From positions 28,171-92,170 of the forward strand of contig PRDH01000035.1 in NCBI GenBank assembly GCA_003345545.1: a stretch of DNA of 64,000 nt. The letters run 5' to 3'. Position 1 is the first letter of the stretch; every line of letters starts with the position of its first letter. The position numbers were made by a program, and so were the translations under genes. This DNA is from Candidatus Thorarchaeota archaeon (GTDB taxonomy: Archaea; Asgardarchaeota; Thorarchaeia; Thorarchaeales; Thorarchaeaceae). Shown one piece after another: positions 10,514 to 13,339 of this stretch. The notes under the pieces were generated by a model, which ran no database searches, was not told the DNA's origin, and worked only from the letters and a program-made list of their open reading frames with translations.

Positions 10514-12010
10514 TCAGTTGTTCAGAACCTTAGCCATATGTTGAGAGGAGAGTTTCAGAAACTCGTCGACATGGTCTTTGTGAATGAATGCTCCTGCCGC
10601 CATCGGATGACCTCCCGCCTCTGCTACGAGGATTCCGTATTTCTTATTCATGTTCTCTGCGACTGACACGAAAGTTTCCTTGAGATTCAACCCTCGCTTG
10701 ATCAGGCTCCTATGAGCACGTCCTGACAGCTTGACAAGAGGACTGTCATTTGACGAGTCTGAGCTGACGCCGATGACGGGTTTATCAATAGGGATTATTC
10801 GTGAGCTTTGCGCCATACCGATAACAACGCCAATGATAGTATCCGGAATCTCAGGATCATTCACCAGATAAAAGCCCGGCATGGTCACAAATCCTCCATC
10901 CTCCAGAAGCCTCAGAGACTGCGCCAGATTCTGTCTGTGCTGCTGCAGCAAGTATCTCCCGTTAGCGACTGCTTCAGAGTCCCCCAAACAAACTTTGACA
11001 CCTACTTCCGGTTGCTTGTTCCGACCGCAGGCATTCAACAGCGTTGAGAATTCCTTTGCACTGCGCATCTCAGTTTTCTCAGGTCGTTGCGTAAGAATCA
11101 CAACATCACCAACAAGTCCAGTAGCGACTATGGGGTCATTGTAGGAATCGATAACCACTTGGATTAGTCTTTGGATGATTCGCTGCTTCTCATCAGATTC
11201 CAGATCAACCCATGTCCGCCATTCATCATTTCCATCTTTCAACGGAATTCCAAGTTCCTCAAAGAACATGAAGCATGCCGTTTCGTCACCGGTGATTCCT
11301 GGAAGATACGGGTCGGTTGCATATTGCAGGAGATAGGGCAAAGGGCGCGTATTGACTCCGAAGAAAGTTAGGTCTTTCGTGACTCTTAGGTACCCTGCAT
11401 CTTCCCCCAATTCAAGTATTTTCTTATTGATTCCCGAGAACCCTTTTCCATAATAATCCTGCAGGTCTCCTGTGGCTCCCACAATGGCCAGTTCAGCGAG
11501 GTCGACGTTCTCTGTTGATAAGGACAGAGCCAGAAGAAAGGCCACGCCTGCTCCAGATATATCGTAGCTGCCATTCATGCCATGATGAGATGGATTAATC
11601 TCTATCAGCCTATCACTTGTGAATGACTGTGTCTGCCGCGATTCCTCGTCTTGTGGCAGATGGTGATCGAGTACAATCGCGTGTTCAACGTAATCTAGGT
11701 CAGCAACTAGGTTTCTCACAAGCTCGATCTGCCCTGTTCCAAAATCACTGAATACGACTAAGTCAGGCTGGTAGTTCTCGACCTCATCACGAATTTCGAC
11801 AATTGTTTCGGAGTTGATCTGATGGATATTCCTCCATTCTACTTGTAGCTTTTCACGGTTAAGGGCCATGACCACAATTGCTAGAGCTGATATGCCATCG
11901 GCATCGATGTGCGAGAAAGCCATTGTCTTCCGTGATTGCCTCACAGCCTGTACTGCCTTGTTGAGCATTTGAGTCATAGATTTCGGGATTGATTCAAGAA
12001 GTGTGTCCAT
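10514..12010 (-). CDS. RecJ/Cdc45-like DHH nuclease (GAN type)
   Basis: HIDADG, SDFGT, LDHH, GATGD, GGHPMAAG motifs; central insertion FFGVNTRPL..DPYLPGITG typical of archaeal GINS-associated nuclease. Confidence 0.88.
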   Translation of the reverse strand: MDTLLESIPKSMTQMLNKAVQAVRQSRKTMAFSHIDADGISALAIVVMALNREKLQVEWRNIHQINSETIVEIRDEVENYQPDLVVFSDFGTGQIELVRNLVADLDYVEHAIVLDHHLPQDEESRQTQSFTSDRLIEINPSHHGMNGSYDISGAGVAFLLALSLSTENVDLAELAIVGATGDLQDYYGKGFSGINKKILELGEDAGYLRVTKDLTFFGVNTRPLPYLLQYATDPYLPGITGDETACFMFFEELGIPLKDGNDEWRTWVDLESDEKQRIIQRLIQVVIDSYNDPIVATGLVGDVVILTQRPEKTEMRSAKEFSTLLNACGRNKQPEVGVKVCLGDSEAVANGRYLLQQHRQNLAQSLRLLEDGGFVTMPGFYLVNDPEIPDTIIGVVIGMAQSSRIIPIDKPVIGVSSDSSNDSPLVKLSGRAHRSLIKRGLNLKETFVSVAENMNKKYGILVAEAGGHPMAAGAFIHKDHVDEFLKLSSQHMAKVLNN

Positions 12011-12084: not shown

Positions 12085-12423
12085 CTAGTCAGTCACACGG
12101 AACACCCTGGATATTGCCAAGAAAACGATGAGAAAGACACTTGCGACTGCAGCAAGTCCTTTTGCCACCTTCTGCCACGTCTTCAGAGGAACTTCGAGTT
12201 CTCTGAGTTCATTCTTGACTCGCTTCAAGAAGACTCGCCTCTCCGTAAACAAGGCGATCTGGTCGTCAAATCTGGACGAGAACTCAGCCCAACTTACATA
12301 GAGCGGGCTTTCAGGATTAGTATTCACCCATTCGTCCCACATGTCCAGTACTTCACTTCGGTGTGGTTCAGGGAATTCCTCAATTTTCTTCTGTACGGAT
12401 TCTATAATCTCGTCAACTGTCAT
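12085..12423 (-). CDS. Hypothetical helical protein with a single C-terminal TM (tail-anchored topology)
   Basis: Soluble helical N-terminus, then GLAAVASVFLIVFLAI eight residues from the C-terminus. Confidence 0.7.
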   Translation of the reverse strand: MTVDEIIESVQKKIEEFPEPHRSEVLDMWDEWVNTNPESPLYVSWAEFSSRFDDQIALFTERRVFLKRVKNELRELEVPLKTWQKVAKGLAAVASVFLIVFLAISRVFRVTD

Positions 12424-12612: not shown

Positions 12613-13137
12613 CTATCTCATTTTCGAGAGTTCGCGACCCCATTCCTTGATATCAACACGGAGTTTCTGGAGGTCCGCTGGACTAATGGTGTCGACTCTG
12701 CCATAGGTCCTCAGGATTCGTGTCCATCTCTGCATCTTTACGATGAGCGCCTCTGCTACTCCTTTGCTCTCCAGCATACCTGCAGCCTCGCTAATCTTCT
12801 GCGAGAGGTCGCTAGCAATAGCTCCTTCTCGAACTTGTGTTTCAAGGGTATCTAGGACTGCTTGATTGGTTGAAACTGCGCCTTTCTGAGCTACGCCTGC
12901 ACTGCTTGCAGCCTGCGTTGCTGGTCCTCCACGCTTGATGCTTTTCACAGTTTCAAGGATCTCGTCAAGTTTCTCTGAGTTTGCAGTCACTGCAAGAGCG
13001 ATTTCTGACTGAGTCTCCTGAATCTCAGTGACCTTCGAGATGACATCGATCATCCTATTCAACATCTGAGTGAGTCTCTCAATAGCTCCATTTATCTCAG
13101 TCAACTTTGCTCTCAGATATGTGTCTTCTTCACTCAT
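12613..13137 (-). CDS. Coiled-coil protein with putative Vps28 C-terminal-domain-like bundle
   Basis: Heptad N-terminus, Ala/Gly linker, then VLDTL...KMQRWTRILRTYGRVDTISPADLQKLRVDI, matching the Vps28-CTD residue pattern. Confidence 0.6.
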   Translation of the reverse strand: MSEEDTYLRAKLTEINGAIERLTQMLNRMIDVISKVTEIQETQSEIALAVTANSEKLDEILETVKSIKRGGPATQAASSAGVAQKGAVSTNQAVLDTLETQVREGAIASDLSQKISEAAGMLESKGVAEALIVKMQRWTRILRTYGRVDTISPADLQKLRVDIKEWGRELSKMR

Positions 13138-13339
13138 GCTTATCCCACTCTTGAGGACCGTATCTGATATCCACAATCTCTCGGACGCAGTTAGTTCTCA
13201 CGAAGATTAAGCTTTCTGTGGCATTCTCCTTAGTAGCGCAAGAATGACGTCCATAACCGAATATCTATATTACGCAACAGGAGTTTCCTCGAGCAGCATG
13301 TTGACGCAACTATAGATATCTGTGAGGAGAAGTCTACTC

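Follow-up and report, generated by a model that had tools for sequence, protein, structure and literature searches.

Gene and protein architecture

On the minus strand of the window, which is the whole 64-kb stretch of DNA analysed here, lies a gene of 174 codons plus stop (12613..13137) whose product, P0001, combines a coiled coil with a tail resembling the C-terminal domain (CTD) of Vps28. Translation begins at the ATG at 13137 and the stop codon ends at 12613, giving a product of 174 residues; an in-frame TTG further upstream, at 13176, was discarded as the start because the orthologues share the MSEEDTY beginning. The protein is organized in three segments. Residues 3-69 (12931..13131, minus strand) form a long heptad helix, the coiled-coil stalk, which is modelled by AF2 as one single helix (pLDDT 87-97) and in which the 3-4 heptad spacing of hydrophobic residues can be read from L8 to V64. 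It is followed by a linker rich in Ala, Gly, Ser and Pro, residues 70-81 (12895..12930, minus strand), which is predicted to be disordered and which, in the family alignment (A1), varies in length and is poorly conserved. The remainder, residues 82-174 (12616..12894, minus strand), is a four-helix bundle with helices at 82-104, 108-124, 129-144 and 153-173 in the AF2 model, and is very probably a divergent homologue of the Vps28 CTD, as judged from hhalign, VIA and AF2. The full-length AF2 model was obtained from a 33-sequence alignment and has a mean pLDDT of 80.5, with values below 50 across residues 70-87. The succession of coiled coil, linker and helical tail which the first-pass annotation had described is therefore borne out by the translation, the model and the heptads, and the two motifs that it quoted, VLDTL and KMQRWTRILRTYGRVDTISPADLQKLRVDI, are both present in the translated protein.

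Pfam searches with P0001 and 33 family members yielded only sub-threshold noise along the coiled-coil stretch. DUF948/YoxC (PF06103) is matched below threshold in 32 of the 33 members, always confined to the coiled coil; its best match in P0001 has an E value of 3.5e-4 and 12.6 bits against a cut-off of 37.2, and the hydrophobic N-terminal segment that is a feature of DUF948/YoxC was not seen in the P0001 sequence.

Gene neighbourhood

The gene directly downstream (12085..12423, minus strand) encodes a tail-anchored membrane protein of 112 residues that belongs to no Pfam family and to no known family, and the third gene of this co-directional run (10514-12010, minus strand) encodes a GAN/RecJ-Cdc45-like nuclease of 498 residues (DHH, DHH-CID and DHHA1). 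In almost all genera of the window's taxonomic family the 112-residue gene is found directly downstream of the orthologue and in the same direction, including at both copies in genome G203, and it is the only consistently adjacent gene within that family, the other neighbours there being a cupin, a HAD hydrolase, a B3/4 protein, HerA and the GAN/RecJ-like nuclease. In the sister family the orthologue and the 112-residue gene lie 10 kb apart and are not adjacent; the neighbours differ, with UvrC found there, and the set of cupin, HAD, B3/4, HerA and GAN is not kept. The tail-anchored protein evolves faster than P0001 (33-91% identity) and is possibly its functional partner. No ESCRT, ubiquitin or GTPase gene adjoins P0001 in its neighbourhood.

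Distribution and conservation of the family

The gene had been taken for an orphan in the first-pass annotation, which turned out to be wrong, as it has more than 220 close homologues, its family is universal in Thorarchaeota, where each genome also has two paralogues, and tails related to its own are present in other Asgard classes. A word-indexed search returned 222 proteins at 70-99% identity, nearly all of the named ones being from Thorarchaeota, and an exhaustive HMMER search of 1.8 billion cluster representatives found three other full-length clusters at 50% identity, together with fragments. Across 301 Asgard genomes, the family profile detected members in the window's family (73 of 76 genomes) and in the only genome of the sister family, also Thorarchaeota, while in the 224 other Asgard genomes searched with it the family was not found and no strong match was obtained. 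In the searches run here members are confined to Asgard genomes and metagenomes. The family formed by a coiled coil and a Vps28-C-like tail is specific to Thorarchaeota and universal in this lineage.

Sequence variation is unevenly spread along the protein: across the family there is almost none in the initial ~40 residues and in the two final helices. In the N-terminal helix the family alignment has T6, Y7, R9, A10, I15, N16, I19, R21, N27 and M29 as invariant residues, and in the tail these are R137, W138, R140, I141, L142, Y145, D149, D155 and W166. Because the start and the final helices are near-invariant throughout such a wide family, we conclude that the gene is real and strongly constrained.

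Predicted structure of the tail

Comparison of the tail of the first model with 48,161 chains using VIA placed the yeast Vps28 CTD at the top (2j9u_A, Z 12.9, rmsd 2.1, 92 of 94 residues), with the designed repeat protein BRIC2 (12.4) and CheA P1 (12.3) within 1 Z unit. A second model, computed for the tail alone from a wider alignment (A3; AF2 pLDDT 88.5, pTM 0.79), again had 2j9u_A in first place, at Z 12.2 versus 10.6 for the next match, a gap of 1.6. Vps28 CTDs were also ranked first and second by Foldseek, but with E values of 0.15-0.18; re-scoring of the Foldseek list by VIA resulted in the first three places being occupied by Vps28 CTDs from two species, at Z 13.1. The best VIA matches of the tail are thus 2j9u_A, 2g3k_A, 2j9w_A and 2j9v, with Z values of 12.2-13.1, in a range (12-13) where helical bundles may match through arrangement alone. 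The tail is therefore predicted in two models to be a Vps28-type four-helix bundle with the Vps28 CTD as its top match, in line with the first-pass proposal, and this fold evidence by itself is suggestive.

Profile comparisons of the tail with Vps28

The relation to Vps28 was further analysed at the level of sequence profiles. A profile built from 26 Asgard Vps28 genes found with PF03997 (A2) recovered the Vps28 CTDs of known structure, from Xenopus at 1.9e-12 and from yeast at 2.8e-6, and was for this reason considered a valid Vps28 profile; the N-domains were matched at ~1e-3. When the family alignment A1 was compared with A2 using hhalign, residues 77-172 were aligned to profile positions 90-188, which correspond exactly to the CTD, with a probability of 68.8% and P 4.5e-5. 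Comparing the tail with the CTD alone gave 80.5% (P 1.3e-5), a value that rises to 87.5% (P 3.6e-6) when both paralogue families are added, and the wider alignment A3 gave 82.8-88% (P 3e-6 to 9e-6) against the Asgard Vps28 CTD; one of the paralogues, B, is by itself only weakly related to Vps28-C (P 0.024). The profile-profile search thus does yield the Vps28 CTD match on which the first-pass annotation had staked its proposal, in the range of 69-88% and P 3e-6 to 4.5e-5, with no hhalign probability between the tail and Vps28-C reaching 90%. The control comparisons stayed far from these values: reversed profiles gave P 0.05-0.5, HPt/CheA-P1 profiles from 14 Asgard loci gave probabilities of at most 1.2% (P 0.019-0.29), and six decoys (Znr_PH_CC_SB, ESCRT-III, Vps4, Vps25, Vps22 and a 410-aa helical protein) gave P 0.02-0.5, which leaves the Vps28 match 3-4 orders of magnitude beyond the reversed, HPt and decoy profiles. 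HPt/CheA P1 domains (PF01627) share the gross fold of the tail (Z 10.6-12.3) but differ from it in having no profile similarity; Pfam Hpt is matched neither in P0001 nor in the 33 members, and a search of 17 genomes from the window's family found no HPt domains.

The alignment itself is informative. In the register found by hhalign, W138 falls on the Vps28 Trp, D-T-I on D-T-L and D-I on D-L, and this is the same gapless register that had been proposed by eye on the basis of yeast Vps28 strings, which agree with the PDB chain sequences. The domain ends also agree, and two conserved Trp residues 28 positions apart are equally spaced in the tail and in Asgard Vps28. Indeed, the tail shares with the Vps28 CTD (C-terminal half of PF03997; 2J9U, 2J9V, 2G3K, 2J9W) a C-terminal up-down four-helix bundle of ~95 residues with equal helix boundaries, a Trp in helix 3 and a D-T-[IL] turn before helix 4, and it shares with the Asgard Vps28 CTD a second aromatic residue or Trp 28 residues after that of helix 3. 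P0001 differs from Vps28 in having a single coiled-coil helix and in lacking the headpiece/steadiness-box domain, a Pfam match and a location in the ESCRT cluster. Comparison of its N-terminal helix with the Vps28 N-domain profile gave a probability of 0.2% (P 0.35), and together with the AF2 model this upholds the earlier description of a long, single helix standing where Vps28 has its headpiece hairpin.

At 11-18% identity to Vps28, the tail eludes searches of other kinds. Pfam VPS28 is absent from the matches listed for P0001 at E values up to 10 and from the 25 Pfam families matched by most of the 33 members, and PF03997 has none at its cut-off in the whole genome; phmmer and profile searches of PDB sequences, as well as searches of the ESM Atlas by features and by shape, returned coiled-coil and generic-bundle noise and no Vps28. 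The Asgard Vps28-CTD HMM did rank P0001 first (E 0.11) and paralogue C second (E 0.16) among 9,430 ORFs of the genome, values which are not significant by themselves. Sequence-to-profile methods are too insensitive for the relation between the tail and Vps28. None of these lines is decisive by itself. Taken together, the fold and the sequence evidence for a tail of the Vps28-C type are convincing, and we consider this assignment highly probable.

Vps28-C-like tails in other Asgard proteins

Outside the family, the best matches of the Thorarchaeota tail HMM among 9,439 sequences are two proteins of ~792 residues (L130 and L131) from another Asgard family, composed of DDRGK/UFL1-like WH/PCI repeats and a tail, with E values of 1.5e-4 and 3e-3, the next match being at 0.27. 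Their tails exceed the Pfam VPS28 cut-off (36.7 and 28.7 bits versus 24.5) and are also matched by the canonical Vps28 CTD HMM. A second relative is found in Baldrarchaeia, in a 380-residue protein in which a weak longin match and an Arf-family GTPase precede a tail at the C-terminus (L062:2204-3355, minus strand, genome G039; family members P0253-P0280). This tail is homologous to that of P0001 (hhalign 96-97%, P 3e-9 to 3e-11). For the tail of P0001, the Baldrarchaeia accessory tails are nearer relatives (P 3.6e-9) than is the canonical Vps28 CTD (P 1.3e-5). Judging from these profile relations, the tail of P0001 is part of a wider set of Vps28-C-like modules.

Two further proteins were noted in the course of the searches. 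A protein of 995 residues (L063:1790-4777, genome G183) with a TrmB-type HTH and long apolipoprotein-like helical repeats has a C-terminus of the same type (LSDSEIVKLKNSIKEWKEKL) and matches the family profile with E 2.2e-5. A metagenomic protein of 1,034 residues (P0131) contains repeats of ~100 residues with a motif similar to helix 4 of the tail, Y-D-R-L-S-x-L-S-P-x-E-x-x-K-L-R-x-D-I-Y, four stretches of it being matched at E 4e-5; this may be due to chance or may be a remote reuse of that helix-turn motif.

The occurrence of Vps28-C in separately encoded and in many multidomain Asgard proteins has been described by Makarova et al. (2024, mBio, Fig. 6B and Table S3; PMC10936438). Among them is a Thorarchaeota 'BAR-SB' protein, KXH73277.1, with helical residues 1-110 and with residues 155-235 matching 2J9U_A at 84% (Table S3, PMC10936438); from its coordinates alone, this protein fits paralogue B in length and layout. 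P0001 has in common with these accessory proteins the presence of Vps28-C as a C-terminal module, the lack of a Vps28 N-domain and the restriction to Asgard archaea, and is distinguished from them by being shorter (174 aa) and by having a coiled coil alone in front of the module. The 174-residue family was not found among the proteins listed in PMC10936438. P0001 is thus an Asgard accessory Vps28-C protein and not Vps28 itself, and its family is a further, unlisted one of this kind. Since the reuse of Vps28-C in Asgard archaea is already published (PMC10936438), we regard this result as incremental rather than surprising.

Three paralogues with the same tail

The genome encodes exactly three proteins with a Vps28-C-like tail, and no other Vps28-C-like domains could be detected in these Thorarchaeota genomes. 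P0001, hereafter also paralogue A, is the shortest, each Thorarchaeota genome also having the two longer ones. Paralogue B (P0133; C39:86857-87561, L064:4858-5562) has 234 residues, arranged as a coiled coil, an insert of ~60 residues and the same tail; it shares its N-terminal helix with paralogue A and is present in 58 of the 61 genomes of the order. Its gene is flanked by two Ras-family GTPase genes, with a CBS protein and a 188-residue protein without family assignment also encoded there (L064:3494-6624). Among 29 further Thorarchaeota loci that were examined, almost all show this arrangement, even where the paralogue identity is as low as ~36%. Paralogue C (C37:22303-23220) has ~281 residues.

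The gene of paralogue C is located ~0.9 kb downstream of that of an all-helical protein of ~410 residues (C37:20078-23220; L061:4079-7221). The gene between the two looks like that of a putative archaeal D-aminoacyl-tRNA deacylase, and the 410-residue protein is also paired with paralogue C in at least four further genomes.

ESCRT genes and canonical Vps28 in Thorarchaeota

An Asgard Vps28 gene usually, if not universally, lies beside other ESCRT or ubiquitin genes. In the genome under study the ESCRT cluster (Znr_PH_CC_SB, ESCRT-III, Vps4, Vps25 and Vps22) is on contig C44 and holds none of the three paralogues; the P0001 gene is on contig C35, and the earlier remark that no ESCRT gene occurs in the 64-kb window holds, none having been found there. 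The Vps22/EAP30 gene of the cluster (C44:126948-127772, L008:10949-11773, minus strand) carries at its N-terminus the Vps28 N-domain, or steadiness box, which is recognized by the Asgard Vps28 HMM with E 3.5e-14; the true start of this Vps28N-Vps22 fusion is probably the Met located 22 codons downstream of the first. A Thorarchaeota Vps22 with a Vps28 N-domain is already listed in Table S3 of PMC10936438. Complex prediction of P0001 (A1) with the Vps28N-Vps22 fusion (A4) returned 'no answer', with a score of 0.00, in both runs, an outcome that speaks neither for nor against an interaction of the two.

Canonical Vps28 is present in most other Asgard families, while in the window's family only weak PF03997 matches were obtained, in 24 of the 76 genomes. 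In the five genomes checked, these matches fall on the ~410-residue helical protein, which was considered as a full-length divergent Vps28 and rejected, given that its comparison with A2 by hhalign gave P 0.13 and that it is also unranked by the Asgard Vps28 HMM; the weak matches were accordingly treated as spurious. This protein has borderline Pfam matches to both VPS28 and BAR, for which profile-profile comparison gives no support. Searches with PF03997 and with the Asgard Vps28 HMM did not find canonical Vps28 in the Thorarchaeota genomes, and at the level of sequence these appear to be without it. Previous surveys point in the same direction, the ThorAB25 set having neither Vps28 nor ubiquitin (PMC9192718) and UEV-Vps23 being reported as missing in Thorarchaeota (bioRxiv 10.1101/2023.07.25.550441). 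The two distributions are in fact complementary: canonical Vps28 occurs in most other Asgard families, whereas the P0001 family was found in the one sister-family genome and in 73 of the 76 from the window's family, and not elsewhere.

Interpretation

The reading that we favour, with a probability of roughly 0.6, is that P0001 is a Thorarchaeota-specific protein made of a coiled coil, a flexible linker and a divergent Vps28-C, in which the coiled coil would display Vps28-C to ESCRT-II or ESCRT-III. The coiled coil would either oligomerize or bind a conserved partner, for which the adjacent tail-anchored membrane protein is a possible candidate, and the stalk, as an oligomer or bound to its partner, would present Vps28-C in one or several copies. 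On the model of eukaryotic Vps28-C, and along the lines proposed by Makarova et al., the presented module would dock on ESCRT-II or ESCRT-III. All this would take place in archaea whose genomes yielded no canonical Vps28 here and from which ubiquitin and UEV-Vps23 are reported to be missing. That P0001 actually works as an ESCRT adaptor, for which we argue by analogy, is a tentative proposal. A more elaborate version, which we consider improbable, is that the three paralogues together replace ESCRT-I: paralogue A would be held at the membrane through its tail-anchored neighbour and would oligomerize via the coiled coil, and the clustered Vps28-C modules would recruit either the Vps28N-Vps22 fusion with Vps25 or ESCRT-III. 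If this is true, the ESCRT pathway would have an entry point that is anchored in the membrane and does not depend on ubiquitin.

A different function is suggested by the company that the tail keeps. It might serve to dock the small GTPases of Asgard archaea, or regulators of these GTPases, with the coiled-coil proteins acting as golgin-like effectors or tethers, which would be compatible with a shared origin with Vps28-C. What speaks for this is the related Baldrarchaeia tail (96-97%) at the C-terminus of a protein with longin and an Arf-family GTPase, and the flanking of paralogue B by two Ras-family GTPase genes, which recurs in almost all of 29 further loci. However, paralogue A is without a GTPase neighbour, synteny inside a single taxonomic family counts for little, a fusion shows joint action and not binding of the tail to the GTPase, and in the published view such proteins are brought to ESCRT-II by their fusion to Vps28-C (PMC10936438). 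We therefore see GTPase docking as unlikely to be the explanation; as a lead, the GTPase associations of the wider tail family are equally as concrete as ESCRT docking.

One could also suppose that the tail is a generic up-down four-helix bundle, similar to Vps28-C by convergence, and that P0001 is an unrelated lineage-specific coiled-coil protein. Four-helix bundles are very common, VIA Z values of 12-13 are also seen among unrelated helical bundles, as the near-tie with BRIC2 and CheA P1 illustrates, the Foldseek E values are high (0.15-0.18), and the low identity to Vps28 goes along with the lack of any Pfam or PDB sequence match. Against convergence, the tail resembles Vps28-C specifically at the profile level, at a distance of 3-4 orders of magnitude from the controls, and the resemblance grows when the paralogues are included; the domain ends and the 28-residue spacing of the two conserved Trp residues match, tails certified by Pfam as Vps28-C are the best outside matches of the family HMM, and Vps28-C came first in two unbiased structure searches. 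We thus hold a chance resemblance to be rather improbable.

Least tenable, and in our estimation very improbable, is that P0001 is a true Vps28 orthologue with an N-terminus diverged past recognition: the family is universal in, and restricted to, Thorarchaeota, where no Vps28-C is detectable besides the three paralogues, but the N-terminus is one helix and not a hairpin, is unlike the headpiece domain (P 0.35), the conserved Vps28 N-domain of the genome sits on Vps22, the tail is nearer to the Baldrarchaeia accessory tails than to the canonical CTD, and the gene lies outside the ESCRT cluster.

The significance of an accessory Vps28-C protein displayed on a coiled coil relates to the position of Thorarchaeota, which are an odd Asgard lineage in respect to ESCRT, having ESCRT-II, ESCRT-III and Vps4. 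Ubiquitin and UEV-Vps23, according to published surveys, and canonical Vps28, according to the searches carried out here, are not found in these archaea. With no other Vps28-C-like domain detected in their genomes, paralogues A, B and C provide three small, concrete and readily expressed candidates for the missing upstream ESCRT adaptor. The P0001 family also offers a test of Vps28-C as a general 'plug' for ESCRT-II, as proposed from comparative genomics, and the tie between the tail and small GTPases, seen in the Baldrarchaeia fusion and in the Thorarchaeota gene neighbours, bears on a pre-eukaryotic connection between trafficking GTPases and ESCRT.
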